From a virus: a stretch of 64,000 nucleotides of DNA. The number at the start of each line of letters is the position of its first letter. The first letter of the stretch is position 1. Of this stretch, positions 6,535-52,652 are shown piece by piece. The translations under genes and the position numbers were made by a program. The stretch spans positions 1-64,000 of the IMG/VR virus record IMGVR_UViG_3300021139_000005, one strand, 5' to 3'. The notes below the pieces were generated by a model, which was given only the letters and a program-made list of their open reading frames with translations, was not told the origin of the DNA and did not search any database.

Positions 6535-6544
6535 TTAAACTTCT

Positions 6545-22918: not shown

Positions 22919-22936
22919 TTTTGATACCTTTGAACC

Positions 22937-23650
22937 ATGGACGTAAATCAGCTTTGGTTATGGATGCAATTTTTAACCAAAAAATTACTTTCTGGTGAGA
23001 TTCAGCCTGATGCATTCAATCTCGCGCTGAATGCGGTTAACATCGACTTCTTCAATTTAAAGTGTGGTCTTCCACAGGAGTATCAGCCTAATCATCCAAT
23101 GCCAAGGCAAGCGTATGAGGTTAGCACCAGGATAACTGATGATATTCAGCACCTTCGTAAGAGAGCAACCATTGCAAATAATGGGTTCAACATTTATACC
23201 ATCCCAACAGATTACGGAGCCTTTTCTTCTATGAGATACCCAAGGTATATTCAGAAGAGAGGTGTACAGAGCATTGATTGGAGAACGATTGATATCCTGA
23301 CCGATGAGGATTACAACGAACGGTTGGAGTCAAATTTATTGCCTATTACCGCAAAGAGTCCTTTTGGATGCTACGTTCAGACGGTTAGTGGAACTGGTTG
23401 GGAGGTTCCGTTGTCAGACATTACCACTATTCAATTAACCTATCTGAGATTACCGAATACACCGGTATTTGGGTATAACATGGTTAACGATGAGCCGGTT
23501 TATGTTCCTGCAGCGTCAACACAACTTGATTGGCCGGTAACCTGTCATCAGGACTTCGTGATTGCACTGTGCAGGTATGTCGGTATCTACCTCAATGCTC
23601 CTGAGATATTGCAGATGCTTGGAGCCAGGGCACAGTCAGGACAGGCCTAA
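22937..23650 (+). CDS. Tail ring/tubular protein (crAss-like)
   Basis: PDAFNLALN, LTYLRLPNTPVFGY, STQLDWP. Confidence 0.65.
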   Translation: MDVNQLWLWMQFLTKKLLSGEIQPDAFNLALNAVNIDFFNLKCGLPQEYQPNHPMPRQAYEVSTRITDDIQHLRKRATIANNGFNIYTIPTDYGAFSSMRYPRYIQKRGVQSIDWRTIDILTDEDYNERLESNLLPITAKSPFGCYVQTVSGTGWEVPLSDITTIQLTYLRLPNTPVFGYNMVNDEPVYVPAASTQLDWPVTCHQDFVIALCRYVGIYLNAPEILQMLGARAQSGQA

Positions 23651-23674
23651 TAAACTTAGCCTTATATTTGAGCC

Positions 23675-24280
23675 ATGGAAATAGAGAAATACGCAGAACT
23701 CGCTACCAGGGCACTCGGTTTCAACAATAATGAGCGTATTGAGGAGAGGGATGTGCTGGGTATCGCGGAGGTGGTTCTCGGAGAACTGATCAAGGAGATG
23801 CTGAGCAATGGAGGCGGTTTGACTGCTGAGTATTACCACCGGTTCACATCAACATTGGAGTTCGATACTCAAATGAAGCTCCCTTTCATCTACAAGCCAT
23901 GCGACATTTTAAACCTTCCAAAGCATCAGTCTTATCGTTACGTTGGTACAGGTGATATTGAGAACTCGTTCATCCCGATGACATGGGGTGAGATAGCAAC
24001 CTACAGCCGGTTAGAGGCTGGTCAGGCAGGCGGCAGAACAGTATTTGCTCCGCTGGGTGACAAGATTTACTTCCGCTACATGCAGGAGCCAAAGCCTTGT
24101 GAGATTGTTACTATGATAGTTCCTTCATTGCTGTGGCTGTATGATAACCGCGATAACGTAAACTTCGTTGGAACCACTGATGTGGAGGGTGTTCTGTTTG
24201 ACCAGGTGTTGCAGAAGCTGCAGTTACGCAAACAGATGCCGGTAGACAATTACAATAACAATAGCCCCGATAACAAATGA
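23675..24280 (+). CDS. Tail ring-like structural protein
   Basis: Position in tail cluster; C-terminal MPVDNYNN. Confidence 0.55.
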   Translation: MEIEKYAELATRALGFNNNERIEERDVLGIAEVVLGELIKEMLSNGGGLTAEYYHRFTSTLEFDTQMKLPFIYKPCDILNLPKHQSYRYVGTGDIENSFIPMTWGEIATYSRLEAGQAGGRTVFAPLGDKIYFRYMQEPKPCEIVTMIVPSLLWLYDNRDNVNFVGTTDVEGVLFDQVLQKLQLRKQMPVDNYNNNSPDNK

Positions 24281-30454: not shown

Positions 30455-30467
30455 TTAACTTTGGGCC

Positions 30468-30812
30468 ATGTTCGAATGTTCACAGTGCGGCTTATGCTGC
30501 AGAAACACCGGAAAAGTAGTAGCTGACGCAAAGAAGGCACTATCCGAAGGAAGCAAATCAGTTCTAACCAGGATAACATCTGAGTTCCCATTTGGAGCAA
30601 AGGAAAATGGTTCCTGTGAAAAACTTGGAGAAGATGGCCGATGCACTGTTTATGAGAACCGGCCAGACATCTGTAATGTTGAGAAGAGCTTCGAAACTGT
30701 GGGCGCAGGAATGACGAAGGAGCAGTATTACTCATTGCAGGGAACTTGTTGCAATGTGATGATAAAAGAGGCCGGAATGGACGAAAAGTATTTAGTCAAA
30801 CAAAACTACTAA
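30468..30812 (+). CDS. YkgJ-family Cys-cluster (putative Fe-S/Zn) protein
   Basis: FECSQCGLCC...C.....GRCTVYENRPDIC. Confidence 0.85.
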   Translation: MFECSQCGLCCRNTGKVVADAKKALSEGSKSVLTRITSEFPFGAKENGSCEKLGEDGRCTVYENRPDICNVEKSFETVGAGMTKEQYYSLQGTCCNVMIKEAGMDEKYLVKQNY

Positions 30813-30813
30813 C

Positions 30814-31524
30814 ATGGCAGGTATTGGAGCAGGATTAGGGGGATTTGCAAGCCTCATTACTAACCTGATTAGCGCAGGTGAAAAAAACGCTCAAGCCAAG
30901 AAACAACAGGGTAAGGCTGCTGAGCTTGAGGCACAGGCCAATGCTGTAACACCAGAGAACCCCCTCAATGACCCAGCGTATAAGATGAAGGCATTCCTCG
31001 CTGCTGCTGGTCTTCCAGGGTATGAACAATACAAGGAGGGTTACAATCAGGATGAGGCCAATGCTGTCGCGCATGCGGAAAAGGATACTAACAGCAGTGG
31101 TGCTTTACTTAACTTTTTGGCTGCAAGCGAAGGCCAAAAGAACAAAGCTGTTACCAGTTTAAATACTCAAAATGCAGCTTATATTGAAGGTAAAAAGGTA
31201 GCTCTAGCTGATCAGTATGAAACCGAGAAGATGAACTTTGACCAAATAGCAAGGGAGCCGAAGGCGAAGCTGAACTATGCGGCCACATCATACGAGAATG
31301 CTGCTCTTCAGGAAAAACAAGATGGTCAAGACCAAACTTTAGGAGCCATCGGTAAGGCCGGTTCGGATATCGGTTCATTACTTGGAACAATAAAGAAGCC
31401 GGTTCCTTCGCCAACATTCGATGCGACAAGCCAAACAGGAGGAGTGAGTAATGCGGTAATTCAACAGGTAATAAATGCGATTCTGAAAAAGGGCAATGAT
31501 GCCGCTGTTCCGTCAGACTTTTAA
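30814..31524 (+). CDS. Probable ejection/internal virion protein
   Basis: G/A-rich N-terminus, A/Q helical body. Confidence 0.55.
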   Translation: MAGIGAGLGGFASLITNLISAGEKNAQAKKQQGKAAELEAQANAVTPENPLNDPAYKMKAFLAAAGLPGYEQYKEGYNQDEANAVAHAEKDTNSSGALLNFLAASEGQKNKAVTSLNTQNAAYIEGKKVALADQYETEKMNFDQIAREPKAKLNYAATSYENAALQEKQDGQDQTLGAIGKAGSDIGSLLGTIKKPVPSPTFDATSQTGGVSNAVIQQVINAILKKGNDAAVPSDF

Positions 31525-31533
31525 TTTCAAACT

Positions 31534-33648
31534 ATGCCAGATCCAGGTTTAACATACGTCAGCGGTAATTACACAGCAGGGCCAGGTATCAGCGCTCCAT
31601 CTAAAGTATTTGGACCTGAGCAGGTAGCGGAGTTAACCAACAACCGGCTAGACCAGTATGTGCAGGACAAAAAGCAGGAACAGGCCAAGAACCAGGCCAA
31701 GCTCGGGAAGATGCTTTCTGACCTCGATGTAAAACCAACGGGCATGTTCGAAAAGGATTTGCCCGAGTTTGTTAAGGCCAAGCAAGCACTGGAAGACTTC
31801 TATACTCAAGCCCAGGTAGCCGGTGTTGATCCTAATAACCCAAGATTTTTGGAGCAGTATACCAAGGCTAAGAAGTATAAAGATGGTCTTCAGGCTATGG
31901 TACAGCAGAGCGTTAATAACAACAAGGAGTTTATAGAGGCAGTAAAAAAGCTGGATAGCAATAAGAATGATCAATTTGATTTTGACAGTAGCCAGAAGAA
32001 TCTGGAAGCCTTTAAAAATGGAACGTTTGAGGAAAGGAATAAGTTAATAGGTAATCTATTAGTCCCAAACAACACAGATTATGAGCATAAATTCATGCTT
32101 GACCTGTATAAGAATGGATTGTTAAAGCCAGACACAACAAAGGTGGCTCTTGATGCAAAGAACCCTGTAAAATATGATAAGGCAAGACTGAAGGAACTAG
32201 AAGCCCTTGACTCATCAGGTAACTTAAAAGGGGATGAGCAGAATGAGTTAAAGGACCTTCGAATCAGCAGAGATGAGAATCAAAAACTTGTCGAAGGATA
32301 TGATGTATCAGAGACGAATGTGAAGTATGGGGACGATATTACCTTTAAAGCCAAAGATGCTAACGGAAACGTAGTTGACCAGATGAAGTTACCCTCTCAA
32401 ACATTGGGGGCGGCAAGAGAAATGATGGCACCCGGAAATAAGGCAGGGGATAAGAGTAGGAGAGAGCTGATAAATTTAAGTAATGGGAAGGATGCCTCTG
32501 GTCAAATACCGCAAGTACAAGACCCAAACTATCCTAATGACCCCACAAAAACAATTGATGACCCCATTGCACAGGAAACCTACCGAAATCTGTATTACAA
32601 CCTGCAAAAGATGGCGGCAGGGTATGGCATGTTTGGTGGACAACCTATAACCGGAGATGAGCTTTACGCGGCTCAAAAGATATCAGCTCACGCTAATGGT
32701 ATCAAGAGGGCGTTTGAGGCAAAAGAAACACCCGCACAGGCAGCCAATGCGAGATACTGGAACTCTGGTGCCGGAAGGAAAGAGAAGGAGCAAACGTCAT
32801 TTGCTGATGACATTGTTAACCAGGCATACTCTTGGCTTACAGGAGATCCTAAGCACGTTCATATGGACTCAGATGGCAGGAATGTAGCCGACCTTGTTGG
32901 CTATAATAGTTACCTTGGGGCAGAGTATAAAAAAGGATTTGGAAACCGAGTTGAAGACGCTCAATTCATTAAAAGACCTGATGGAACAACGGTCCTCCGG
33001 GTGAAATCATCTGCAAGCAAAGCAAAGGCAGCGCAGAATCCTACAATAACGGCACAGTACGAAGCAACAACGGCTCAGGTTGAGGCGATTGAAAACAATC
33101 CGAAGGTTTACGACAAAAATAATCCTATAAATCCGTGGAAAGATATCAGCCAGAAGGCCGATTATGAGAAGTTACAGAACCACCTTACCGAACTAGAAAA
33201 GGCTGGCGGTAGCGGATATACAACTTATACCGTTGATCAACTTGGAACGCTGGCACAGGAACGAGTTATGGGTATCATGCATGGACATGGTGATCTCGCT
33301 ACAGTACTTGGCGAGGTTAAAGATGCGGTGGACAGAAAGCTAAAATCTGTTGCTGGAAAGAACCCCAGTTACGGGGCAATAAAATCATCAGATAAGGCTG
33401 CATTACAGCAGCAACTTGAGGACAACTTGGATAAGATGAATTATATGTCTGAAGGACCAGATAAGGCAGACTTTGTAGCAGAAAATACTCGCCTTCGGGA
33501 AAAAATCAAGGCTATTGAGGATAAAGAGGTCGGCACCAAAACATCAACCAAAAAGACACCTCCTCCAAAGACGGGTGATGTTGTATCCGGACATAAGTTT
33601 AAAGGAGGAGACCCAAACAAACCAGAAAATTGGGAGGTTGTAAAATAA
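31534..33648 (+). CDS. Probable ejection/internal virion protein
   Basis: K/Q-rich; C-terminal GDVVSGHKFKGGDPNKPENW motif. Confidence 0.55.
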   Translation: MPDPGLTYVSGNYTAGPGISAPSKVFGPEQVAELTNNRLDQYVQDKKQEQAKNQAKLGKMLSDLDVKPTGMFEKDLPEFVKAKQALEDFYTQAQVAGVDPNNPRFLEQYTKAKKYKDGLQAMVQQSVNNNKEFIEAVKKLDSNKNDQFDFDSSQKNLEAFKNGTFEERNKLIGNLLVPNNTDYEHKFMLDLYKNGLLKPDTTKVALDAKNPVKYDKARLKELEALDSSGNLKGDEQNELKDLRISRDENQKLVEGYDVSETNVKYGDDITFKAKDANGNVVDQMKLPSQTLGAAREMMAPGNKAGDKSRRELINLSNGKDASGQIPQVQDPNYPNDPTKTIDDPIAQETYRNLYYNLQKMAAGYGMFGGQPITGDELYAAQKISAHANGIKRAFEAKETPAQAANARYWNSGAGRKEKEQTSFADDIVNQAYSWLTGDPKHVHMDSDGRNVADLVGYNSYLGAEYKKGFGNRVEDAQFIKRPDGTTVLRVKSSASKAKAAQNPTITAQYEATTAQVEAIENNPKVYDKNNPINPWKDISQKADYEKLQNHLTELEKAGGSGYTTYTVDQLGTLAQERVMGIMHGHGDLATVLGEVKDAVDRKLKSVAGKNPSYGAIKSSDKAALQQQLEDNLDKMNYMSEGPDKADFVAENTRLREKIKAIEDKEVGTKTSTKKTPPPKTGDVVSGHKFKGGDPNKPENWEVVK

Positions 33649-33671
33649 GTAAAAGTTTATACCTTTGAAGC

Positions 33672-33914
33672 ATGAGAATGCCCAGAAAAGTAAAAAAAAG
33701 ACTACAAAAACGAGTTGCTAATGGGGCTACGTTTGATGAATTTATGTTTGAATTCATGCACAAAAAAAGAAATATTTTGTTTAAGAGGTTTGGTAAACAA
33801 TCACCCATGTCTGCTGGAAAATTTATAGTTGCTAATTATATGTCTCCCGATCTAACTAAAATAGAGGGTAATGCATTTGATGATGTATTATTACCTTTGA
33901 ACAATGGCCGATGA
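33672..33914 (+). CDS. 80-aa protein carrying a copy of the MCP N-terminal motif
   Basis: KRNILFKRFGKQ vs MCP KRNKLFKRFGKQ; own TACCTTTG element 33660-33667. Confidence 0.75.
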   Translation: MRMPRKVKKRLQKRVANGATFDEFMFEFMHKKRNILFKRFGKQSPMSAGKFIVANYMSPDLTKIEGNAFDDVLLPLNNGR

Positions 33915-36585
33915 CAAAAAACCATGGGAAGTAGAGTATGACAAGGGTAGCTCAGATAGCAAACAAGCTACCACAGAGGCAAAGCCTTGGGAAATAGATT
34001 ATGACAAACCGGCTTCCAAGAAAGAAGATGCACCCGTAAACTCTAATGAAGAGGCCCAAAAGAAACTACAAGATGGTGGTAAATTACCTGGACTACAGGA
34101 TAACAAAACACCTGGGAAAGAGTCTAATGAGGCGGTTCCTGTTCACCCACAGAACGAACGCCTTCCTGATCCAATAAAGAAAAAGGTAGGCGATAAAAGC
34201 GTTGAAACCTACGTCGCTGAAAAGAATCATGAGCAGTTCAAGAAGCAGGGAGAGATGTCGGATATTGCCGGCAAGCTGAATCAGTTTCAATATTCTGATA
34301 ACTGGAAACAGTTTTTAGCCCTCAGCGAATCATTCGCAAGCCCCAACTTGAAGAAAGGGACTCCAGAGTACGATGCGGCAGTTAAGAAGCATGATGAACT
34401 TATGGATAAGCCGTTCGACTATAACTCCGTTCAGTATGAGTGGGGGTCTAATCCTACACCGGCATCCACCTCTGAAAAAAACTACGTTAAGCCAGCGACA
34501 GAAACTACCTTCAATAACAAGGTTCCAAAAGAATTTGCCAGTGTAAAAACAGTTGGTGATGCTGTAAAAGTTTGGAATAAACTGAGTGCTGATGGGAAGA
34601 AGCTACAGGAAGAGCATAAGCAGGTAACTGCTGATAAGGATGAAACAGTCAAGGCCGCGAGAGATATTGCCGGCATCAAGATAAACCAAGCCGGAGAGCA
34701 TCAGATAAACCAGTACGAGTCCTTCGTTGATGGGCTTGTTGGTTCGTTCAGTTCAATAAAGAAAACGACTGACCTGCTTACTTCATCTCCAGAGGAACGT
34801 GCACAGATAGGTTTGCAGGGCGAAGGAGAGCAGCTTATTGATCCAAAGGTCCCTACAGGATTTGGGGCAGGAGCTTTTCAGGCGGCAGGTAGCCTTATCC
34901 CGTTGGCCATGCCTGGGATTGGGGCAGAGGCTGCGTTTGGCAAGGGAATGTTAGCTGCCGGTGGTGCAATGTTCGGACAGGGCCTTATCATGCATATGAC
35001 AGGATATGCACCTGCATGGCAGGAGATGTTCAGCAAAACATTTAACGAAACGGGGGATAAGATGTTGGCTGTAGACAAAGCCGACAAGACTGCAGCAGTA
35101 CATGGAACGGTGGACTTCATAGTAGGTGCTGCCATGCTTCCAATAGCTACTAAATTAGGAGGAATAGCAGGCAGGGCTATACTTGGGGAAGAGGCTGCGA
35201 ATTACCTCACCAAAACAGGAGAACTTAACGCAAGCAGGATGCCGTTAGGCCGGTGGGTAGAATACCAGTTGGCTCATCACAGTATTGCATCGAGTCCGTT
35301 TTACGCGGGTAAGGTAGTTACAAATGCCTTTGATATTGCCAGCGGGGAAAAGAAGGGATACCTGGATGGAGCCGCCGATCAATACATGGGTGCTATGTTG
35401 TTGGGGTTCGGAATGGATGGATTCATGTATGGCAAAGGGAAGGTAAGGGATATGTGGGGTAAAACCCTATCAAAATATGCTCCGGATGCTGCTGTTCAGT
35501 TCATCAACAAAATGATTGGCGAAGGCAAGATGGGCCAGAAGGAAGGCACTGACATGGTAGGAACCATAGAAAATCAGGCCCGGGCATACAAGATGATGCC
35601 AGATGGAATTACCATCGACCACGAAGGCGAGATTCTTCCTATCCTGATGGAGAATGATCAGCTAATGCGCCAAAAGAATGAAGGAGACCTTTATCCTGAC
35701 GTTGTTACCATGGATAAAATCCGGAAGAACAACCAGAAGATATTGGAGATTACTCAGTCTCCACTATCGTACGAAGAGTTAAAGGATAGGGCTAAATTGA
35801 AGGAACAGGAGAAGGCAAATGGTGGAAGACTTCCACAGCATGACCGGGATATGTTATCGCACTACGACCGCAGGCTGGATGCTATTGAGGCTACCAAGGC
35901 TGAAATGGCTAACCGGAAACAGAAGGCTATCGATGACATGATTGATAAGCTGTCTACCGGTGATAAGGTAGAGGCTACTCCAGAAGAACAGAAATTCTAT
36001 GAGGAGAATAAAACAGCAATCGATAAAGGTCTGGAAGATAAACAGACCGCTATTGACACGGAGAAAAAGGCATCCATTCAGAACAAGATAAATGCTGGGG
36101 AAGAAATTACCGGCGATGAGCTTGCTGACAAGAAGAAGTTCGAAGAGGAAGGATACGAGTTCAGGCCCAAACCTGCTGCTCCACCGGCACCTGTTCCCGC
36201 ACCTGAAGAGGTTCAACAGCACATAGCCAACAACTATAAAGCTGATTTGAATGCCATCGACGCAAAGATGGAGTCAGGAGAACTTACCCATGAGCAAGGG
36301 GAGGCAGAGATTCAAAAGTTGAAGGATAAGGCAGTAAAAGACCTGGCCGATAAGAAGGCTGCGGAGAATAAAGCTACGCGGGAATCGCTTGAACCAGACA
36401 TGAATGCCTTCAGCGAATACGAAGCACTTCAAAAGAAAAAGGGTATCAAAAAGACCAACGGCATGGCCGACTTCCTTGAAAAGATGGGAAGGAAGGGTGC
36501 AGCTATAAAGGCTATCTCAGACAATTGGAGTGAGCTCAGCAAAGAACTTGAGAAATCAGGCATCTTGGAAGTTGACTGCCCATAG
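33904..36585 (+). CDS. Large internal virion/ejection protein
   Basis: KPWE(V/I)xYD repeat, G/A-rich hydrophobic middle, charged C-terminus ending VDCP. Confidence 0.6.
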   Translation: MADDKKPWEVEYDKGSSDSKQATTEAKPWEIDYDKPASKKEDAPVNSNEEAQKKLQDGGKLPGLQDNKTPGKESNEAVPVHPQNERLPDPIKKKVGDKSVETYVAEKNHEQFKKQGEMSDIAGKLNQFQYSDNWKQFLALSESFASPNLKKGTPEYDAAVKKHDELMDKPFDYNSVQYEWGSNPTPASTSEKNYVKPATETTFNNKVPKEFASVKTVGDAVKVWNKLSADGKKLQEEHKQVTADKDETVKAARDIAGIKINQAGEHQINQYESFVDGLVGSFSSIKKTTDLLTSSPEERAQIGLQGEGEQLIDPKVPTGFGAGAFQAAGSLIPLAMPGIGAEAAFGKGMLAAGGAMFGQGLIMHMTGYAPAWQEMFSKTFNETGDKMLAVDKADKTAAVHGTVDFIVGAAMLPIATKLGGIAGRAILGEEAANYLTKTGELNASRMPLGRWVEYQLAHHSIASSPFYAGKVVTNAFDIASGEKKGYLDGAADQYMGAMLLGFGMDGFMYGKGKVRDMWGKTLSKYAPDAAVQFINKMIGEGKMGQKEGTDMVGTIENQARAYKMMPDGITIDHEGEILPILMENDQLMRQKNEGDLYPDVVTMDKIRKNNQKILEITQSPLSYEELKDRAKLKEQEKANGGRLPQHDRDMLSHYDRRLDAIEATKAEMANRKQKAIDDMIDKLSTGDKVEATPEEQKFYEENKTAIDKGLEDKQTAIDTEKKASIQNKINAGEEITGDELADKKKFEEEGYEFRPKPAAPPAPVPAPEEVQQHIANNYKADLNAIDAKMESGELTHEQGEAEIQKLKDKAVKDLADKKAAENKATRESLEPDMNAFSEYEALQKKKGIKKTNGMADFLEKMGRKGAAIKAISDNWSELSKELEKSGILEVDCP

Positions 36586-36599
36586 TATATATTTGCTAC

Positions 36600-37223
36600 A
36601 TGGTAGCAGTAGAATTCATCATCGACGTAATCCTGGACGCACCATTTGAATCGATATATCCTGAAGAGATGAGAATCCCTTCCGAGATCAAGCATCAGAT
36701 GCTGCATAAGACCCAGGCAACCTTCATCACAATGATCAACAAGGAAACCAGGGAGCCAATTGGCGAGACGTATTACCTCCCGTTGGACTTGCTTGAACAA
36801 CACATGACCGAGTTACAGGCCGGGGCATGGATGGGAAAACAAGCAGCATACATCTACAAGAACACAATTCTTCCTGAATATCAGGGTAAAGGGTATGGAA
36901 AGATGCTCACCGATTTCAGGCTCTCTCATCTCAAAAAACAAGGGTATAAATACTCCATCGGTCACGCGAGACACAACAGGTCAATTAAGCAGGCGCGTAT
37001 GTTCGGAGCCACGGTCATTTCAGAGATTGATAACTGGTCAGGCGGTAGCGAAACGGTATCTCTTTGTGTGCTTGATTTAACCAAGTTCAGTGATCATGAG
37101 ATTGACCGGGCAGCAGTAAAGGCCGGTATCGAATCAGGATACAAATACACAGAAAAGATAGCTTATCAGGACGGTTACCGGGCAGGTATTATCTTTGCTC
37201 AACAAAATGGCTATAACTCCTGA
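36600..37223 (+). CDS. GNAT-family acetyltransferase
   Basis: ILPEYQGKGYGKML acetyl-CoA motif. Confidence 0.85.
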   Translation: MVAVEFIIDVILDAPFESIYPEEMRIPSEIKHQMLHKTQATFITMINKETREPIGETYYLPLDLLEQHMTELQAGAWMGKQAAYIYKNTILPEYQGKGYGKMLTDFRLSHLKKQGYKYSIGHARHNRSIKQARMFGATVISEIDNWSGGSETVSLCVLDLTKFSDHEIDRAAVKAGIESGYKYTEKIAYQDGYRAGIIFAQQNGYNS

Positions 37224-37332
37224 CGATAACATGGATGGCATCGATGAAGATGCAGACTTCGTAGAGACGGAAGAAACAGGCTATGAGGATATCGAAAGTG
37301 ATTCTGAGGACGATTCAAACGAAGATTGGTAA
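37207..37332 (+). CDS. 41-aa highly acidic peptide (not in ORF track)
   Basis: MAITPDDNMDGIDEDADFVETEETGYEDIESDSEDDSNEDW; TAATG overlap with next gene; TATCTTTG just upstream. Confidence 0.7.
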   Translation: MAITPDDNMDGIDEDADFVETEETGYEDIESDSEDDSNEDW

Positions 37333-38612
37333 TGGACAAAGAACTGCTCAAAAAGAACGTCATCATAGTTGACAATGGCTCCCACATCGGATTTGCCCAA
37401 AGACTTTCGCGTGAATTCGGGAAGGTATACTACCACAACCCATCAGGGAAATCATCTTATCCGGCAGAGCATGACGCAGCCGTAGGGGAGGGCATGAAAG
37501 GAATTACAGTAAGCTATGATTTCTACGATGACCTGAAGGATAGCGATGCAGTATTCTTCCTTGACCTGTACCATGATGATTGGCAACAGCACCTTGTGGA
37601 CATCGGATATCCGGTATGGGGCGCAAGGGAGGGCGAGGAGATAGAGACTGAGCGAATAGAAGCAAAGAAACTGATGAAGAGGCTTGGCCTACCGGTAAAC
37701 AAATACGATATCGTTAAGGGACTTGACAACCTCCGCGAGTATTTGAAAAAGAATGATGATGTCTTCGTTAAGGTATCCAGATGGCGGGGTGATGGCGAAA
37801 GTTTTCACTCAGAGAATTACCAGGCTATTGAGAATAAGCTGAACCACATGCAGGTATTTTACGGCGCAATGGCAGACACGAAGGAATTTGTAGTTGAGCA
37901 GCCCATTGAGGCAGTTTGTGAGGTTGGTTTAGACCTTTACTGTATTGATGGTGTTTTTCCAGATATAGTGCCGTTCGGGTTCGAGGCCAAGGACTGCGGA
38001 TATGTATGTACTGTGATGCCATTTAAAGAGATATCCCCATTGCTCACTGACCTTCCAATGAAGATGGCCGATACTCTGAGAGAGTTACAATACCGGTCAG
38101 ACTTCTCCACAGAGCACAGAATAACCAAGAAAAAGGTGTCTTACTGCATAGATATTGTAGCGGGTAGAAAGCCTTCTCCTCCATCAGAACTGTTACAGGA
38201 GCTCATCCTTAATTGGGGGGAGATAATGTTCTACGGAGCCCAAGGAAAGATGATTCAGCCAGAGTATGCAGCAAAATTTGGAGCCGAGATAATCATTCAC
38301 TGTGCCGATGCTGAAAAGGAATGGGTAACAATTCAAATACCAGAAGAGATTCGCCAGTGGGTAAAACTAAAAAACGTGTGTTATTACAACGATGCGTTTC
38401 AGTACATACCACAAGCGTTTGATATGGAAGAAATAGGGGCGGTTGTAGCTATTGGCGATAGTATTGAGGAATGCATTGAGAAGGTAGGGGAATACTGTTC
38501 TATGATTACAGCACATGGCTTAGAGATGAATGTAGAACCCATTATGGCTAAATTACAAAAGGCCATTGCCGATGGGGAGTCCGTGGGTATTAAATTTGGT
38601 CAGGAAATATAG
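37332..38612 (+). CDS. PurD-like ATP-grasp ligase
   Basis: GYPVWGA..EIETERIEAKKLMKRLGLPV, VFVKVS, FVVEQPIEAVCEVG, GFEAKD; start ATG 37332. Confidence 0.8.
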   Translation: MDKELLKKNVIIVDNGSHIGFAQRLSREFGKVYYHNPSGKSSYPAEHDAAVGEGMKGITVSYDFYDDLKDSDAVFFLDLYHDDWQQHLVDIGYPVWGAREGEEIETERIEAKKLMKRLGLPVNKYDIVKGLDNLREYLKKNDDVFVKVSRWRGDGESFHSENYQAIENKLNHMQVFYGAMADTKEFVVEQPIEAVCEVGLDLYCIDGVFPDIVPFGFEAKDCGYVCTVMPFKEISPLLTDLPMKMADTLRELQYRSDFSTEHRITKKKVSYCIDIVAGRKPSPPSELLQELILNWGEIMFYGAQGKMIQPEYAAKFGAEIIIHCADAEKEWVTIQIPEEIRQWVKLKNVCYYNDAFQYIPQAFDMEEIGAVVAIGDSIEECIEKVGEYCSMITAHGLEMNVEPIMAKLQKAIADGESVGIKFGQEI

Positions 38613-38629
38613 CCTAAATTTGCCTTCAT

Positions 38630-41600
38630 ATGGCAAAATCACCTTCACCGTGTATCCACATTGACCTACGTACCGGAAAAGTTTATTCCGAACAGCAGTT
38701 TAAGGCAATGCTGGCAAACGATCTTCCTGAATTACTTGAAAAACTACCAGAGTTTAAGCCGAAGTATGAGGCTGTAGCAGCAAAGGTAGATGAGCTGGGC
38801 GGGACCAGTGTAATCATAGCGCCATTTTACGATAAGCGAGCGGCCACCAGAGAAGAGGCCGATATGCTTAACAACTCCCCTGCGGTTCAGCAGCATCTTC
38901 AGAACATGCGTGACTTGGCGAAGGCCATGGGGATCGGGGTCAAGAGTATTAAATCTAACCTGGGAAAGTTTGTAAACAAGGAGAAAAAAGAGGTTTACGA
39001 ATTAAGCCATACGGTTCAGTTGGATACAAAGGATTTAGACAAGGCAACGACATTTGCTGCACTTATGGGCGTAATGGGGCCAGAGGTTCAGCAGTCTACT
39101 ATTGCGGGAAGGGTGCTTTCAGAAAATGAAATCGGCTCAGACTCCCATACGGCAAATAGATTCGATGTTAACTTTTCTTCTGAAAAAGATTTTGATAGGG
39201 CAGTGGAACTCGCAATTGCTTCAGGATTAGAGTATTCTGCCAATATTGAGAACCGAACGATATCTTTTTTGGATTTTTCTAATGGGAAAGATACCAAATG
39301 GTTGTCAAACTTTAATACCTTTGATTCTCAAATCGTAGACAATGGAATCGACGGAGAATACGCAGTCACCCCAATTGAATCAAGACTCATCGAAGCAACC
39401 CCAAAGCCAATCTATGAAGGAGGCCCGCTCTCGAGTGGAAGAGATGCCATTCTTCAAGAGGGGCAAAGGCAAGTGGAACTTCAAGGGGGCGGGGGATTGC
39501 TTCGTCATGCCTTGGACGAGGCAGTCACAAGAAACAACGACTTCCTCAAACAACAAGAGCTAGAACCGGTCCGCAAGGAATACGCCGATCTACGACAAAA
39601 AGAAATCGATTTAGGGGAGAAGGGAGAGCGCTTAACTGATGAAGAGGTTAAGAAGAAGGATGAGCTGTACAAAAAACTCTTGCCTGAAGTAAAGACCACA
39701 GTAGCCAAGGCCGCAGATGCATACAGTGAGGCTAAGGAGGAGATACAGAGCGTAGGGAAGAAGGTTGTAGGGAAGAAAGGCTTTGTCGTTCCGTTCAACA
39801 TAAAAAGGGCTGAGAGGGCAGCGGTTAAGATACTTCGCTGGTATCAGGGTAAGGCACAGTGGCTCGGGGATGGTGCCAGGACAACAATAGTGGTACACGA
39901 TGCCGCTGACATCCATGATGTTGTTGAAGACCTGAAAAAACAATACGGTGGCGGGATTGAACGCGATGAGACTACCGGTGAAACAGACCTTGGATATCCA
40001 AAACAATTACTTGAGGTAAGGACTAAAAACGGTCGCATAGCTGAGTTCCAGGTAATGACTCCAGAGGGTTACTTAGCTAAAGATGGCATAACCAATTTCC
40101 AACCAGAGAAACAAGGTTACGCTAAACAGGTTCTGAATGCTATTCGTGATCGACTTGGCTTTGATATTCCGGATGGTGCCGGCCATTATTTGTATGAAAT
40201 CAGCAGAGACTTTAACGTTCCAGGTGAACTACGCGAGGAGGCAAACCGGTTAAGCAGGCAGTATTACGATGCCATGACTAACGAGAACAGCACACTCGAT
40301 GGTAAGCAGTTTGAGAAGGACATGAAAGCATTCGTTGATAAGGTTGACGGTGCCGATAAATCTGGATGGGATGAGGGTAATAAGGGAGTTGCTCCTGAGC
40401 CGGTAAGAGAGTTTATCGGTGCAGAGGAAGCGGACAAAAACCTTCCTACATACACAGCAAAAAATGTTGGTTCGATAGATACTAAGGATAGGGAAGGCGC
40501 ACAGAAAAAGGTTCTGGAAGATGCAAAGAGGGTGATTAAGGCGGTCTCTGGCATCGTTAAGAAGGGTACAGGACTTGATCTGAAGGTCGTTGTTCATGAT
40601 GATCCGGAATCGTTCGCTAGGGCAGTAAGGAGAGCAGGGGGAAAGAGTCAGAACGCAGGTGCCCGGGGATTCTATATGGGGCCAGATGGAGCGATACATC
40701 TCAACATGGACAAGGTTACTACCGACACAATGCTCCATGAAGGATTTCACCCTCTCCTTGATTATATAGCAGCACAGAAGCCGGAAGAGCTCGACAATCT
40801 TTATAAGCAACTCAAAAGCGTTCCGGGCGCAGAGGACATTGTGGACCAGGCCGATATAGACTACACCGGAGATGTCACTCGTAAGAAGGAGGCCATCACT
40901 GATTTCATCGCCAAGGTAGCTAACGGAGATATCAAAATCGAGCCAACTACTATCGATAAAATCAAGGACTTCATCAATAAAGCGCTTAACGTTGTAGGCT
41001 TAGGAAAGGCTCCTGTTGACATGGGACTGGACATGAGTAATGCTGAAGACTTGAAGGCATTGGCAAAGGGGATAAGCCAAAGTTTCGCAACCGGAAAGGA
41101 AATAAAGCCATCGGACATAGTTCCAGATTGGTTGCAAGGGAAGGGAACAGAGGGGAACGCTGACCAACCTATACAGCTACAGGCTGACTTCACTCACAAA
41201 GAAAGTGGATTAGAATGGCAGTACTTTAAAAACTCAAATAAGTTCAAAGACTTGGTTGATCGGGGATATGTAACCTTTGATAAAACCATCCACGACTTTA
41301 AAGGGGCGGTAGTATTCCACATGCCCGATGCGGGGTTTTCGGGTAGAATATTAAAGGATGGGGTATTGGTTTCTGAGGGAAAGGGGGGCGTATACTATCC
41401 ATTAGTTTTCCATGACAATGGAGACTTTTGGGCAGCTACATCACGCGGGGCAGCGTCATTGGCAAAGAGGTTAAATCAGGCTAGGGCCGCATCGCCGGAC
41501 GGAAAAATAAGGATGGTATTGGTCTCTTCACCAATAGACAAACTGATGTCTTCCTCGCTAAATGGAATAGGACTTGTAGATATGCTAACATCAAAAGCAT

Positions 41601-44600
41601 TTAGCGATAAGTCTGGGGTTACCCCCACTCAACTAAGGAAAGCAATCATATCCGCTGTTGAGAAGACCGAGGAGTCAAGGAAGCAAAAAAAGGATGGAAT
41701 GAAGCCATCACAAAAGCCATTATTTAAAGTTAAGGCTGGGGATACGATGGCTGATCTACACATTAAATTAAGGGAATACTACCCACCAGAAAACAGCGAT
41801 TTTGCAGTAAGAAAAGCTCTAAATAAGAACATACTTGGAGAGCTTGCGGGTTCTATATCCGGGAAGACAGCAAAGCAACTAAACGACTTCTTAGGTGCCG
41901 GTACATTTAATAGGGCGTTAAAGTCTAAAGGAGAGTCAGTGTCAAAAGCTAGTTTATCGGAAGGGTTTTCTAATATCCTTGCAGAGCCAATGCTTAGGGG
42001 GGAGGAGTCAGGGAAAATGTATGCAGTTATTGAGTTAGGTGCAGATGTAGAGCCAGTAAAAACATCGGACCACGAATCTTATCCTTACACCTTAAGGTCG
42101 ACGGACCCCAACGAAAAGCCAACAGTACATATTTTAAAAGAAAGAGATCACTGGTACAATCACGCAACAGATGAGGGGGGGGATATTATAGGTGATGACA
42201 AAGATAAGCAGGCATCAACGTTGCCGACAAATGCAGGGATATCTAATGTTGTTGATTTGAAGCCACAGGGCGAACCAAAGAAAAGCAAAGAGGCTCCTCA
42301 ATTCCAAAAAGACACATCGAAAGAAGAGGATGAAAAGAATCTCCCATCTCGGGCAGAGATGATCCTTCAGGGCAAAACAAAGGCTGAAATTGATGCTGAG
42401 ATTCAGAGAAGAAAAGACCTCGGATTAACAGCGGCCAGGTTCCCTCAAAGAGTGATAGGAGCAAGGAAAGCGGATATCGAAAAAGACCTTGAGGAATTAG
42501 GACTTTCACCACTTGAAAAAGCCGAGGTGAAGGCCAACCAAATGGTGTGGGACAAGGCAGTAAAAGAGGTGAACAGCGGGAAGGTTCAGCCACTTGATAT
42601 TGCAGACAGGATCAACTCTTCATCAGACGCTACAATCACTACAGAGGAAAAGGCTGCGCTACTATATGAACGAGGGAAACTACTCAATGCCCATGATGAG
42701 GCGGTAAGCAATATGAACAAGGCAATTGACTCTGGAGATGACTCCGGAGTTTTGAGTTCATTGGAGGACATGGCCCGAATCACTGATCAATACAACCAGG
42801 TTGCAACCGCAGCAGTAAAGGGAACGAGCGAAGCAGCCAGGGTGTTGCAGTTGGGTACCAGAGATACTGATGCTAACTATCATCTTTTGGAGGTAAAGCG
42901 CCGGCTGAATGAATTCGTTCCTGCCGATGCAAAGACTCAGAAAAAGGTAGAGGGATTAGTTGCTAAATTGAAAGAGGCAACAGACCGGTTGGAGCACAGC
43001 CGTCAAAAGGAGGCAGACCTTCAACGTGGTCAGGCCATCCAGGATGAGATCAACAAGCAACTCAAAGAACAGGTAAAGCTGGGCGGTGGTAGGCTGCGCG
43101 GGGATGCTCTGATAGCAGATGCCACAGAAGACTTTGCGAAACTGTTTGGCCTGATTGATACCAAGCCACAGTTCCAGAAGGCTGAGGACGAGAAGAACGT
43201 AAGTTTCTCTAACGCGGTAGCTAAATTGGCGAAAGGCTTTGCTGATAAAGGATTCAATGGAGATGCTATTTGGGATAAGGTTAAAGAGCATGTCAAGGAA
43301 AAGACCGGCAGAGACATACCTGAAATATACAAGGACGATGCCCTGGTAGAAGCCAAAGATACCGGTGAGGCAATCAAGGAAAAAGTAGCTGAGAAGGTTC
43401 AATCCGGAGATACAGACCTGAAGGATATGAAGGGAGAACTGAAGAAGCGCCAGCGCGAACTGGTAGCTGATGGCATGAAGAAACATGAGGAGGTGACAGC
43501 GGCCATAACCAAGGAACTGAACGATGCTGCCGGTGAAGACAAGTTCGATGAGCGCGATGTGAGGGATGTATTATCTGGATACGGTGATGTGAAAAAGCCA
43601 TCTGCTGACGAGCTGGATAAAGAAATCCGTGAGCAGAATGTGAAGATGAGACTTGCCTCTTCGAAAGAAGATGTGATCATCGGTAATGCTCCTTTAAAAA
43701 GTGGATTCCAGCGTGATGCACCAACTCAGGAGATCAGGGAGTTACAGCGTGAAGTGCAGAGGATAATGAAGGATAAAGGCATTCAGGATGGCCGTAGTCC
43801 AGAGCAAAGATGGAAGACCTCATTAGAGGCTATAAAAACAGGGCTGAAGCGCCAGATAGAGGATTTGACCAAGCAGTTAAATACAGGGGTAAAAGAAACC
43901 AAGAACAAGGCCAAGACACCTTACGATGATGAAGCGAAGAATTTACTTGCTCTACGCGATCAATTACAATCAGAGGCAGACAGAATCTTTGGTAAAACTG
44001 AGTTGAGTGATGAGCAGAAGGTTAAAATGGCCATGGACTCTGCAGAGAAGAGCTACCGTGAATATCAGCGCCGGCTAAGAGAATCTGACTTTACTCCTCA
44101 GCAGAATAGCACAACACCTGAAACACCTGCCCTGAAGCAATTACGTGATGCCAGGGACAACATGCGTAAGGCATATGAGAAGGCTAAAAAAGCGGCCCAG
44201 GGTAAGGCTCCGAAGTCACCTGAACAGAAGGCGCTTGACCGGGTAGAAAAGGAACTTGATGACCTGATTCAAAAGGTTCAGGATGGGGAAACTGCTGAAC
44301 GATTAAAGAGCACTACTCCGGAAACTCCGGAACTGAAGCAAGCAATAGAACTTCGTGATAAGCTGAAGCAGCATATGGAAAACATGCGTAACGCTGCTGA
44401 TCCATTCAGAGAGGAACGTATGGCTCTGGACACATGGAGGAAGCGCAAACAGGCTGAAATTGAGAAGAAGAAGGAAAGGCTGGACCTGATAAATAAAGGC
44501 ATTGAACCTAATCCTCCTAAACCTAAAATTGAACCAAGGAGCGCTGCGGATATTGCATTACAGGCCGAGGCAGAAAGGCTCAAGATTCAGATAGACCGGG

Positions 44601-46264
44601 CGATTGAGAAACAACGGTTGGAGGCAAGATCGGAGCTAGAGAAAAAACTGGCCATCGCTTTCAGAATAAAAAGGGCAACAATTTTAGCCAGGGCATCAGT
44701 GTTCGTTAAGTTATCGTGCGCTGCAATGTGGCAGGCGGGTATTATTACTCCTACAACTAAAATGGTTCAAACAGGGATTGGAAAGATTCCAGGTCTTAGG
44801 GACGTATCATCTAACTCACCAACGCAGGGAAATTATTCTTTGGATGCTGCCGCTGCAAACTATAAGCAGTTTTGGGGTAAAGAAGTATTAGCTGACATCA
44901 ACAAAACATGGAAGACCGGCATCATGGATATTGATGCTATTGATGGGAAACAGCCTCAGATAGAGGAGCATTGGGAAGACATCATAGGCAACTCTCACGC
45001 AGCAGTCAAGGTAATACCGGCAAGGGCAGAATACTTTTCTTCAGCACAGTCAGTAGCGGAGTGGGCAGTGCGTAACAAACTTCGTTTGGATAGTCCGCAC
45101 ACTCAGGAGATAATCCATGAGCTTTCTTATGATAATGCACAGAGGAATATCTTCAAGAATCCAAACGCGATATCTAAGGCATACAAGGAGTTTATCAACC
45201 AGGTAGCTGATAGAGGTGGTCCGATAGGTAAGATAGCCAAGACCATGCTGTTTGATGAGAATCTGCCGATCATTACCGTACCAACCAACATCGCCATTGA
45301 TGGAGCAACGTATGCCTTCGGTGCTGCCAGGGCCTTGGCTGATGCATATGAGTTAAAGGCGCTGGGCGGTCCGAAAGGAGTAGAGGGCGAGAGCAAGGAG
45401 AATACGATCAAGAGGTTGAAACTGAATGATGATATCATGAGAAGCCTTGGTAAGCAAACTGTTGGTCTCCTTGGTTTGGCTATGGGGTATTCACTTTATC
45501 ACTCTCTTGGCGGGTTATACAACAAGGGGGAAAAGAAGAAGATTGATGACTTAAAGCCAGGTGAAATTCAGGCAGGAAACTGGAAGATATCTCCACTGTT
45601 TACCCACCATCCAGGGTTCTATTCATTACAGATTTCGGCAAACTTCCAGAGACTTTTGGAGGCACATAAAGCAGATAAAACCAAGGCAGGTAAGGAGCCG
45701 TTTAACTGGTCAGATGCTTTGGCAAAATCTGTTCTTGCTACAGCGAAAGAGATTCCTTTTGTAGAATCGATGGATGCTCCGGAGAAGGTTCTTGCCAGTG
45801 GCCAGGGTGTGGTTATGGCGGCAGGACAAACTTACCTTGCAGATAACATACCAGGATTTTTGGAGGAAATCGCAAAGGCTACCGATCCGGAGGCAAACAG
45901 ATACCCTCAAAGCGTATGGCAGGAAATAGAGAAAAAAATACCGGTGTTACGCGAGAATGTACCATCCGAGAAACCTGGCGCACAGAGAGGTGATCCGTTG
46001 AACAAAGCGATCAAACAGGAGAAGGAACTTGTTAAGGATAAGGAAGACAGGGGCAAGGGCACATCCAAGGAAGAAAAGGAACTGCAGGGCTTACAGGGTA
46101 AAAAGGAGAAGCAGGTTCAGGACCAGGCCAAGGAGGTAGCAAAAAGATTCAAAACCATGGAAAAGGGTAAGGCCAAGGCATCACTGAATAAAATGGTGAA
46201 GGACAAAGACATACCCGGTGCCGTTCGTGATGAGGTGTTCAGAGAACTGGAGATTGATAAGTAA
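38630..46264 (+). CDS. 2544-aa polyvalent virion protein: RelA/SpoT-like nucleotidyltransferase, zincin metallopeptidase, coiled coils
   Basis: IKRAERAAVK..LGDGARTT..GYPK..AEFQVMT..GHYLYE; TMLHEGFH. Confidence 0.8.
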   Translation: MAKSPSPCIHIDLRTGKVYSEQQFKAMLANDLPELLEKLPEFKPKYEAVAAKVDELGGTSVIIAPFYDKRAATREEADMLNNSPAVQQHLQNMRDLAKAMGIGVKSIKSNLGKFVNKEKKEVYELSHTVQLDTKDLDKATTFAALMGVMGPEVQQSTIAGRVLSENEIGSDSHTANRFDVNFSSEKDFDRAVELAIASGLEYSANIENRTISFLDFSNGKDTKWLSNFNTFDSQIVDNGIDGEYAVTPIESRLIEATPKPIYEGGPLSSGRDAILQEGQRQVELQGGGGLLRHALDEAVTRNNDFLKQQELEPVRKEYADLRQKEIDLGEKGERLTDEEVKKKDELYKKLLPEVKTTVAKAADAYSEAKEEIQSVGKKVVGKKGFVVPFNIKRAERAAVKILRWYQGKAQWLGDGARTTIVVHDAADIHDVVEDLKKQYGGGIERDETTGETDLGYPKQLLEVRTKNGRIAEFQVMTPEGYLAKDGITNFQPEKQGYAKQVLNAIRDRLGFDIPDGAGHYLYEISRDFNVPGELREEANRLSRQYYDAMTNENSTLDGKQFEKDMKAFVDKVDGADKSGWDEGNKGVAPEPVREFIGAEEADKNLPTYTAKNVGSIDTKDREGAQKKVLEDAKRVIKAVSGIVKKGTGLDLKVVVHDDPESFARAVRRAGGKSQNAGARGFYMGPDGAIHLNMDKVTTDTMLHEGFHPLLDYIAAQKPEELDNLYKQLKSVPGAEDIVDQADIDYTGDVTRKKEAITDFIAKVANGDIKIEPTTIDKIKDFINKALNVVGLGKAPVDMGLDMSNAEDLKALAKGISQSFATGKEIKPSDIVPDWLQGKGTEGNADQPIQLQADFTHKESGLEWQYFKNSNKFKDLVDRGYVTFDKTIHDFKGAVVFHMPDAGFSGRILKDGVLVSEGKGGVYYPLVFHDNGDFWAATSRGAASLAKRLNQARAASPDGKIRMVLVSSPIDKLMSSSLNGIGLVDMLTSKAFSDKSGVTPTQLRKAIISAVEKTEESRKQKKDGMKPSQKPLFKVKAGDTMADLHIKLREYYPPENSDFAVRKALNKNILGELAGSISGKTAKQLNDFLGAGTFNRALKSKGESVSKASLSEGFSNILAEPMLRGEESGKMYAVIELGADVEPVKTSDHESYPYTLRSTDPNEKPTVHILKERDHWYNHATDEGGDIIGDDKDKQASTLPTNAGISNVVDLKPQGEPKKSKEAPQFQKDTSKEEDEKNLPSRAEMILQGKTKAEIDAEIQRRKDLGLTAARFPQRVIGARKADIEKDLEELGLSPLEKAEVKANQMVWDKAVKEVNSGKVQPLDIADRINSSSDATITTEEKAALLYERGKLLNAHDEAVSNMNKAIDSGDDSGVLSSLEDMARITDQYNQVATAAVKGTSEAARVLQLGTRDTDANYHLLEVKRRLNEFVPADAKTQKKVEGLVAKLKEATDRLEHSRQKEADLQRGQAIQDEINKQLKEQVKLGGGRLRGDALIADATEDFAKLFGLIDTKPQFQKAEDEKNVSFSNAVAKLAKGFADKGFNGDAIWDKVKEHVKEKTGRDIPEIYKDDALVEAKDTGEAIKEKVAEKVQSGDTDLKDMKGELKKRQRELVADGMKKHEEVTAAITKELNDAAGEDKFDERDVRDVLSGYGDVKKPSADELDKEIREQNVKMRLASSKEDVIIGNAPLKSGFQRDAPTQEIRELQREVQRIMKDKGIQDGRSPEQRWKTSLEAIKTGLKRQIEDLTKQLNTGVKETKNKAKTPYDDEAKNLLALRDQLQSEADRIFGKTELSDEQKVKMAMDSAEKSYREYQRRLRESDFTPQQNSTTPETPALKQLRDARDNMRKAYEKAKKAAQGKAPKSPEQKALDRVEKELDDLIQKVQDGETAERLKSTTPETPELKQAIELRDKLKQHMENMRNAADPFREERMALDTWRKRKQAEIEKKKERLDLINKGIEPNPPKPKIEPRSAADIALQAEAERLKIQIDRAIEKQRLEARSELEKKLAIAFRIKRATILARASVFVKLSCAAMWQAGIITPTTKMVQTGIGKIPGLRDVSSNSPTQGNYSLDAAAANYKQFWGKEVLADINKTWKTGIMDIDAIDGKQPQIEEHWEDIIGNSHAAVKVIPARAEYFSSAQSVAEWAVRNKLRLDSPHTQEIIHELSYDNAQRNIFKNPNAISKAYKEFINQVADRGGPIGKIAKTMLFDENLPIITVPTNIAIDGATYAFGAARALADAYELKALGGPKGVEGESKENTIKRLKLNDDIMRSLGKQTVGLLGLAMGYSLYHSLGGLYNKGEKKKIDDLKPGEIQAGNWKISPLFTHHPGFYSLQISANFQRLLEAHKADKTKAGKEPFNWSDALAKSVLATAKEIPFVESMDAPEKVLASGQGVVMAAGQTYLADNIPGFLEEIAKATDPEANRYPQSVWQEIEKKIPVLRENVPSEKPGAQRGDPLNKAIKQEKELVKDKEDRGKGTSKEEKELQGLQGKKEKQVQDQAKEVAKRFKTMEKGKAKASLNKMVKDKDIPGAVRDEVFRELEIDK

Positions 46265-46302
46265 GAAGTTTCTATTTTTACACAGTAAATTAAACCAACG
46301 AT

Positions 46303-46848
46303 ATGCAATTCATCAGTCCCAACTCGGTAACGGTAACGAATGGTGTAGGAAGCTACCCTGCAAGTTTTAATTACGTTTGGGGCGATACTACGAGCCCTGC
46401 ATTTACAGTTGACTCTGCGGTTAATACCGTGATTCACGTAACCAACTGGCAGGGAACGGAGCAGCAGTTTGAGTTATTGGTCGGCGGTTATTTCGTTGAC
46501 TACACCAATAAGGCAATTTATCGCATCGTTGCAAACAAATATCATGCTCCTGACGGATCAGGAAAGGCGATAGACCTGTATGTGAACAAGCCAGTGGTTT
46601 TGAGTTCACCAACTACAGTTTTCCAGGTAGTTCCATTTAATTTGGTAGCGGGTATCTTCTCTGTTATGGTTCGCCTTGAATCAGGTGTCGCTACAATCAG
46701 AAATGCGAATGATAACACTACCTCAAGTTTGGCAGCGGTCAATCAGCGTATCACTATTTCTCCGGCCAGCAACATCAGAGGCTATGTGGAAGCGATCCTT
46801 ATCGACACAACCGCAACAGGCGTAGCCGAAGCCAGTAACTCTAAATAA
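46303..46848 (+). CDS. Hypothetical beta-rich (probably virion) protein
   Basis: Open frame, V/T/N-rich. Confidence 0.6.
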   Translation: MQFISPNSVTVTNGVGSYPASFNYVWGDTTSPAFTVDSAVNTVIHVTNWQGTEQQFELLVGGYFVDYTNKAIYRIVANKYHAPDGSGKAIDLYVNKPVVLSSPTTVFQVVPFNLVAGIFSVMVRLESGVATIRNANDNTTSSLAAVNQRITISPASNIRGYVEAILIDTTATGVAEASNSK

Positions 46849-46851
46849 TCA

Positions 46852-47106: not shown

Positions 47107-47108
47107 AT

Positions 47109-52547: not shown

Positions 52548-52652
52548 TATATTTGTCTTATGATGTCCGCTAGCATCAGAAAGATATTTAACTTTTAAAT
52601 TCCCTTATCGAAAGGTGTCTAGCGGCATCCGGAGGTAGGGGAATTTCTTTTT
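52548..52652 (+). promoter_or_regulatory. -7 promoter plus structured leader of second HNH-AP2 gene
   Basis: TATATTTG 52548-52555; pairings 52562-52577/52614-52629 and 52597-52609/52634-52646. Confidence 0.6.

Follow-up and report, generated by a model that had tools for sequence, protein, structure and literature searches.

Gene content and setting of the locus

The window analysed here, the initial 64 kb of an IMG/VR record of 72,414 bp with direct terminal repeats, carries on its plus strand a virion module in which a small gene, here called mini (33672-33914, +), lies between two large ones. Its upstream neighbour encodes a 704-aa virion-module protein (31534-33648, +), and its downstream neighbour an 893-aa protein (33904-36585, +). 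The source phage was found in metagenomic runs from freshwater, lake and sediment dated 2012-2020, and it appears to be a freshwater podovirus-like phage with a Flavobacteriia-type host.

The head genes of the module are those for the large terminase (9861-12101, +), the portal (12132-14489, +), a putative scaffolding protein of 405 aa (14524-15741, +) and the major capsid protein (MCP, 453 aa; 15764-17125, +). The MCP has an HK97 fold and is SU10_MCP-like (phrog_13704, E 2e-24); its AF2 model has a mean pLDDT of 79.3, and the best Foldseek matches of this model are Vibrio phage VP1 (9in6, 8.6e-21) and phicrAss001 (7qof, 3.5e-19). Among cultured phages, relatives of the MCP were limited to 77 records from phages of Flavobacterium, Cellulophaga and Maribacter, the best among the matches listed having ~25% identity.

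The 405-aa protein gave weak coiled-coil-type matches only, and no protease domain was found in it; neither was any prohead protease family recognised in the head module. Its position between the portal and MCP genes suggests that it is the scaffold, which makes it a candidate partner of the MCP N-arm. A family syntenic with it is encoded upstream of the MCP in 61 loci. Members of this scaffold-like family (alignment A5, ORFs upstream of the MCP) are poorly conserved, with 11-37% identity to the window's protein, but for a common H-N-P-S motif with a near-invariant NP ~40 residues before the C-terminus, after which most members have an acidic tail.

The virion module also encodes, on the plus strand, tail-spike-like proteins and very large proteins of 1733, 704, 893 and 2544 aa. 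Three tail-spike/fibre-like proteins (19936-21462, 21464-22918 and 47862-49754) are paralogous, with glycine-rich repeats in common (e.g. GATGPTG) and scores of up to 155 bits (19936 vs 47862). Further likenesses within the window join the products of 6531-7265 and 52653-53195 (118 bits), and the 378-aa minus-strand protein (61515-62651) and the 2544-aa protein (38630-46264) from residue ~1750 on (39-49 bits).

A small basic protein encoded on an AT-rich insert

The mini ORF starts 24 nt past the upstream stop and shares its last 11 nt with the start of the 893-aa gene. A plus-strand ATG-ORF of at least 78 aa arose in 2 of 5000 mononucleotide shuffles of 33649-33914, and the annotated frame is far ahead of the other two by codon log-odds with the phage codon table. 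Being open beyond chance, fitting the gap and having a start box, mini looks like a real gene. A frameshift fusion of mini to the 893-aa gene (+1 frame) was also considered and was rejected, since a TGA at 33898-33900 in the frame of the 893-aa gene leaves just 11 nt for a shift and there is no slippery sequence in them.

The product of mini has 80 aa, a pI of 10.6 and a net charge of +8 in residues 1-18. Its AF2 single-sequence model (mean pLDDT 57) has helices at residues 5-16 and 21-40 at pLDDT ~70 and a C-terminal half that is predicted to be disordered; in all, it contains three helices of at least 9 residues, one 5-residue helix and a disordered tail, and is not a full HK97 fold. The ESM Atlas model of the same protein has a pLDDT of 0.49, and a search of Pfam and PHROGs with mini returned 0 families.

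The original prediction had described the gene as an AT-rich insert, and both its composition and its absence from the corresponding junction of a relative bear this out. The GC content of mini is 32.5%, as compared to 43.9% and 46.6% in the flanking genes, and GC at its codon positions 1, 2 and 3 is 0.40, 0.33 and 0.25, the last of these as compared to a GC3 of 0.42-0.50 in the flanking genes; mini is the third most AT-rich 240-nt stretch in the window. A 15-nt direct repeat, TACCTTTGAAGCATG and TACCTTTGAACAATG (13/15 identical, 232 nt apart), brackets the insert, and this repeat consists of the start boxes described below. No terminator-like site was found in 33300-34200.

The closest complete relative compared, G001, has an MCP that is 70% identical to that of the window. 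By tblastn, 16 of 25 window proteins were matched in G001, which is syntenic from 9861 to 31534. The 701-aa G001 orthologue of the 704-aa protein is 27% identical to it over the full length, and its stop and the ATG of the large ORF that follows share bases (ATGA), with no small gene between them in this one relative compared. The gene is therefore dispensable for assembly, since the closest relative does without it. From 33672 to 47351, that is, from mini through the 2544-aa protein and including small ORFs, no tblastn match was found in G001, so that the 893-aa gene is likewise without a counterpart there and the insert is placed at the edge of a swapped module. In place of the swapped block, G001 (L082, L085) has an ORF of at least 1096 aa that runs off the contig end and, at the other end, an ORF of 3935 aa; the tested genes either side of the block are conserved in G001, except 47862-49754.

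Start boxes shared with neighbouring structural genes

A start element 4 nt before the ATG had been predicted for mini, and it is found there: TACCTTTG at 33660-33667 (+), a TAnnTTTG box of the Bacteroidota sigma-A -7 type, is followed by AAGC and by the ATG at 33672. A second TACCTTTG box (33892-33899, +) has the same 4-nt spacing to the start codon at 33904, that of the 893-aa gene. The TANNTTTGNNNNATG pattern, a box with N4 and an ATG after it, occurs at 7 sites in the window as compared to 1.0 expected, all of them on the plus strand (22925-22939, 23663-23677, 30456-30470, 33660-33674, 33892-33906, 36588-36602 and 52548-52562), and 0 of 100 shuffles reached this number. Six of the 7 boxes are at starts of virion-module ORFs (22937, 23675, 30468, 33672, 33904 and 36600), so mini has its start box in common with five neighbouring structural genes. 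Only the orthologue of the 30468 gene retains the box in G001.

In Flavobacterium psychrophilum, the sigma-A -7 box TAnnTTTG is described at -12 to -5, and leaderless transcripts are given as 5.5% of mRNAs (PMC9723704). If the boxes of the window are sigma-A promoters with the spacing described in that source, transcription would begin on the A of the ATG, and a set of structural genes would have leaderless transcripts.

The mini gene itself contains another box, TATGTTTG (33743-33758), which is followed, after 5 nt, by the ATG of Met29, three positions before the copied motif; a start at Met29 would give a 52-aa product beginning MHKKRNILFKRFGKQ. The MCP motif likewise has a Met ahead of it (M27), and the tblastn matches of cultured relatives begin at M27.

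Mini carries a copy of the MCP N-arm core

Residues 32-43 of mini (KRNILFKRFGKQ; 33765-33800, +) copy the core of the MCP N-arm (KRNKLFKRFGKQ, MCP residues 30-41; 15851-15886, +). The two are identical at 11/12 residues and 22/36 bases, and their codons differ at 10 of the 11 shared residues, GGT alone being common; the ORF, the position of the motif, the residue count and the codon count were all as the original prediction had them. The BLASTP match of the pair extends to 12/15 residues (MHKKRNILFKRFGKQ vs MPSKRNKLFKRFGKQ; E 2e-5 for this single pair). It is worth mentioning that this is the sole inter-protein 11/12 match among the 59 ORF products of the window (20,139 aa), and that such a match was found in 0 of 300 residue-shuffled proteomes; a test by bit score was weaker, since among 1000 shuffled minis there were 3 that attained 26.9 bits when compared with the other 58 proteins. 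A six-frame scan of the window found the full motif in the MCP and mini only.

Profile comparisons gave a likeness of the same short extent. With hhalign, mini aligned to the 78-sequence MCP profile over 15 columns only (probability 39.9%, E 3e-4), and an N-arm HMM matched mini over 14 positions (33759-33800, E 0.023). By sequence, then, mini is a case of fragment-level homology to the N-arm and not a member of the HK97-fold MCP family (SU10_MCP-like, PF17236 / phrog_13704).

An alignment of 78 MCP homologues has a conserved N-terminal segment, ISTFDIxKPxxxNxLF...GxQG, in which L34 and Q41 are at least 90% conserved. The likeness of mini to the MCP N-terminus was upheld, the motif being the family-conserved core of the N-arm. 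The form KRNxLFKRFGKQ is limited to the closest clade (P0002-P0008, at least 68% identical), and the fourth motif position, which is the sole difference between mini and the MCP, varies within this clade (K, E, Q, T). In the subclade P0012, P0014 and P0016-P0021 (alignment A1; 45-49% identical), a hydrophobic N-terminal extension of 25-40 residues precedes the conserved arm; it resembles a signal peptide, which is unusual for a capsid protein, and may come from start-codon calls or be a real feature.

Mapping on the predicted MCP structure placed the motif mostly in the flexible N-arm (residues 1-38) of the HK97-fold model. The pLDDT of the AF2 model is <50 at residues 1-8, 10-12 and 14-38, so that motif residues 30-38 are in the low-confidence N-arm and residues 39-41 just past the part with pLDDT <50. 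The N-arm of HK97-fold capsids becomes ordered via neighbouring subunits or scaffold. Judged by eye only, this clade stands out from the rest of the family by a more basic scaffold tail and likewise by a more basic arm motif, so that no charge complementarity between the two is obvious. A complex prediction of two MCP copies with mini residues 10-57 scored 0.00 each of the two times, the mark being 0.32; it was run without controls and counts neither for nor against binding.

Echoes of the MCP on either side of the core had also been predicted, and they are present but statistically weak. On the N-terminal side, ATFDEFM (33726-33746, +) resembles STFDIHM at MCP residues 21-27, with 83 of 2000 shuffles scoring as high (p ~0.04), and its TFD is conserved across the MCP family. 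On the C-terminal side, FDDVLLP (33876-33896, +), with the predicted DDVL, resembles YDDVLFP at MCP residues 110-116; 93 of 2000 shuffles scored as high against MCP residues 42-140 (p ~0.05), as compared to 362 of 2000 against MCP residues 42-453 (0.18). This second echo overlaps the start box of the next gene, the LPL codons of the echo doubling as the TACCTTTG sequence there. VAN occurs in both mini and the MCP, as had been said, but is out of register with the best alignment of the N-terminal flank (ATFDEFM/STFDIHM). Each of the two echoes is collinear with the core, and the residues it involves are ones that the MCP family conserves.

Codon pattern, relatives and origin of the core

The original prediction took the codon differences as a sign of selection on the peptide rather than of recent duplication. 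The 12-codon core has 10.5 synonymous differences over 6.5 synonymous sites, which is saturated, and a pN of 0.12; the saturation rules out a recent duplication within the genome, and this half of the claim stands. The MCP core of this phage and its orthologue in G001 differ in the same saturated-synonymous way. The other half does not follow from the codons. Their pattern alone is without proof of selection in the mini lineage, since by the sequence comparison the differences could predate the capture, both copies then being parts of full-length MCP genes in different phages.

What speaks for constraint in the mini lineage is the contrast between the core and its flanks. The core has kept 11/12 residues and the flanks are nearly unrecognisable; if the whole ORF came from the 5' region of an MCP gene, constraint specific to the core is favoured, because neutral decay cannot yield such a contrast and a neutral view then needs a core-only capture. 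The 5' GC3 of MCP genes in the wider family is as low as 0.22 (74 matches), and the sampled AT-rich MCP donors carry the GDQ form of the motif, not GKQ. Our donor search found no relative whose MCP codons are notably closer to the mini core, the best having 25/36 identical bases (G001) as compared to 22/36 in the phage's own MCP.

Searches for mini in other genomes returned little besides itself. A word-indexed search of 5.8 billion clustered proteins found mini only, and phmmer over 1.84 billion representatives found mini and P0080 (E 6.9e-4), a repetitive 784-aa protein matched in four stretches that we judged spurious. No match was found by tblastn against 50,697 phage records, nothing above 0.9 in the ESM Atlas search, and no short protein among those searched for resemblance to MCP residues 1-120. 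The protein cluster of mini consists of two start variants of one sequence only. With the N-arm HMM, the MCP was found in 34 of 35 whole records of the MCP family, and a second copy in this phage only (0 of 34 other records); of the records at least 90% complete, 15/16 were matched, each with a single MCP match.

The 15-sequence MCP alignment as query led to 79 loci, and a two-sequence alignment of the 704-aa protein recovered G001 alone. The closest MCPs, P0003-P0009, are 60-78% identical, and the longest contigs encoding them measure 24-76 kb. Scans of viral contigs with the 704-aa protein or the MCP alone found no relatives, and a metagenome scan with the 893-aa protein gave no match.

A possible role in head assembly and its alternatives

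From the identity of the motif and its position in the N-arm, we suggest, with some hesitation, that mini is an accessory mimic of the N-arm that binds the arm's assembly partner. Mini belongs to the late virion module, where it follows the genes for the terminase, portal, scaffold-like protein, MCP and tail spikes and stands among those for very large proteins, and this was counted in favour of this reading; what we say of the expression, binding, capsid incorporation and assembly effect of mini is what we infer. Counted against it were the failure of all searches to find a homologue, the single N-arm copy in the other records of the MCP family, the absence of the gene from G001, the missing charge complementarity between scaffold tail and arm motif, the poor models of mini, and the point that capture from an MCP gene already diverged and AT-rich would give the codon pattern too. 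Mini would be a genuine accessory gene, specific to its lineage, that sits on an AT-rich cassette of 232 bp inserted between two large genes of the virion module; it would probably derive from the 5' portion of an MCP gene within its own clade, with only the arm core still under constraint. In the second predicted helix, its small, very basic product would retain what is conserved in the N-arm core, namely N, LF, G and Q, together with the K/R residues specific to the clade. Through this motif, mini may occupy the binding site of the N-arm in head assembly, which could be the scaffold's C-terminal region or an adjacent MCP subunit at the inner face of the shell. Such binding would bring a basic protein into the procapsid, where it would be an internal component or line the capsid, and where its N-terminal +8 segment could contact DNA; as an alternative outcome, the binding might tune assembly by competition. 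A bolder form of the proposal, in which the MCP N-arm is a portable docking tag, so that a basic protein with the arm core only would be recruited to the scaffold or the inner shell face and built into the head, is conceivable but doubtful.

We consider it rather unlikely that mini is a functionless relic or an accidental young ORF. On this account, part of an AT-rich MCP gene that had already diverged ended up in an intergenic cassette, and recombination between the repeated TACCTTTGAA start boxes may have brought it there; the synonymous differences would be older than the capture, and the peptide would be unselected. Much of the context agrees with it: mini is a singleton with no homologue found, it is absent in G001, a 15-nt direct repeat surrounds the insert, MCP 5' regions with a GC3 of 0.22-0.26 exist in the wider family, the divergence of the core equals that between orthologous MCPs, and no confident structure was predicted for mini. 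It has difficulty, however, with a core at 11/12 amid decayed flanks, for which, if the whole ORF comes from an MCP 5' region and ~20% of residues are retained, we estimate a neutral chance of ~2e-7, so that a core-only capture would be needed. An 80-codon ORF in DNA of 32% GC stayed open in just 2/5000 shuffles, mini fills the space between its neighbours exactly and is preceded by a bona fide start box, and the AT-rich donors sampled have GDQ where mini has GKQ. A likeness that arose by chance in a lysine/arginine-rich stretch is hardly credible. The BLASTP score is modest (26.9-28.1 bits) and is reached by 3/1000 shuffles, and the hhalign probability is just 39.9%, but an 11/12 match occurred in 0/300 shuffled proteomes, the matching residues are those that the MCP family conserves, and the flank echoes are collinear with the core.

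The motif may also have a target outside the phage head, which we regard as unlikely. Some defence systems are triggered by capsid proteins, and mini might titrate or antagonise a host factor that recognises the N-arm of the unassembled MCP, such as an immune sensor, a protease or a chaperone. A small, accessory and compositionally foreign ORFan is typical of counter-defence genes, mini is found in one lineage only, the N-arm is disordered and hence accessible in the monomer model, and a box of the host sigma-A type could permit expression apart from the late programme. A sensor that is activated by its trigger would, however, be switched on by a mimic and not blocked, the Pfam and PHROGs searches returned no defence or anti-defence domain (0 families), and mini is positioned within the virion module. 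Very unlikely, in our judgement, is a competitive or dominant-negative assembly factor that stays out of virions and either hinders the heads of co-infecting relatives with the clade motif or throttles the timing of the phage's own. The motif does fit the whole close clade and not the cognate MCP alone, and CpmB is a documented case of a competitor that acts by a shared motif where capsid and scaffold meet (PMC5644958). An identity of 11/12 to its own MCP means, however, that this would be hit equally, and the strongly basic N-terminus would be left without a role.

Comparison with known systems

The accessory-mimic reading places mini among short motifs shared at head-assembly interfaces, a known theme of which it is best filed as a variation. 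Small, compositionally distinct genes with their own promoter-like element, standing between conserved phage genes and absent from relatives, are known as morons or mobile regulatory cassettes. Mini is similar to a moron in its distinct composition and its absence at the G001 junction, and a promoter-like box precedes it; no terminator-like site was found in 33300-34200, and, as a difference, its flanking repeat is the start box itself. As to derivatives of capsid genes, T4 gp24 is a full-length MCP paralogue active in head assembly. SaPIbov5 Ccm, as the source consulted presents it, is a second capsid-gene derivative in head assembly. Both are complete HK97-fold proteins, whereas mini has 80 residues, of which ~15 align to the MCP profile.

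In phage 80alpha, the C-terminal helix-and-hook of the scaffold is described as binding the N-arm helix of the capsid protein, and CpmB of SaPI1 as competing via the same interactions (PMC5644958). Like CpmB and the 80alpha scaffold in that description, mini is a small protein with a short motif of a head-assembly protein that may serve for the same site. Unlike them, mini copies the MCP N-arm, which is the other side of the interface, and not the scaffold; in addition, the mini gene is in the phage itself and not, as that of CpmB, in a satellite. There is no sequence relationship between them, and the likeness is one of shared-motif logic alone.

The internal proteins of T4 are reported to be diverse save for a short conserved capsid targeting sequence (PMC3012670). 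As in that report, mini is a small accessory protein with a short peptide as a possible head-directing signal. The T4 signal is N-terminal, common to several internal proteins and cut off by the prohead protease, whereas the motif of mini is at residues 32-43 and, by the six-frame scan, is shared with the MCP only. DarA and Hdf of P1 are described as lining the inner capsid surface and touching DNA (PMC12810830), and gp36 and gp57 of phicrAss001 as capsid-lining accessory proteins, gp57 substituting at the portal vertex (PMC10172136). In these descriptions, non-MCP proteins take defined sites in the shell, as we propose for mini, whose incorporation is hypothetical. Mini has no sequence or fold similarity to DarA-Hdf or gp36/gp57, and neither group is MCP-derived. 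None of the precedents, CpmB and the T4 proteins included, is related to mini or has a copy of the MCP arm.

In the portions of the literature searched, we found no arm-only mini-paralogue of an MCP and no MCP-derived capsid-targeting signal. Because mini is a single gene in one uncultured phage lineage, its reach is limited and its interest moderate. If mini binds at the N-arm site, it would mark the functional core of the arm in a large, uncharacterised capsid family of Bacteroidota-type phages; it would then be a natural case in which part of a capsid protein serves again as a signal for assembly or targeting, and would supply a short peptide with which cargo might be loaded into such capsids. 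If mini is a relic only, it records the entry of small cassettes into a structural operon via start-box repeats.

Persistence of the locus in metagenomic runs

Contigs of four DNA runs (X3, X4, X8 and X11) were compared with 31500-36600; one piece excepted, they agreed with it at 99% or more, with patchy cover in X8 and X11. The same four runs contained no change inside the mini gene and no insert-less form, and one X3 contig of 1867 nt spans mini (32669-34535) without difference. In freshwater runs of 2012, 2016 and 2020, the region 31500-36600 had 4 single-base differences in 5.1 kb where it was covered, and the phage population looks very stable over the runs.
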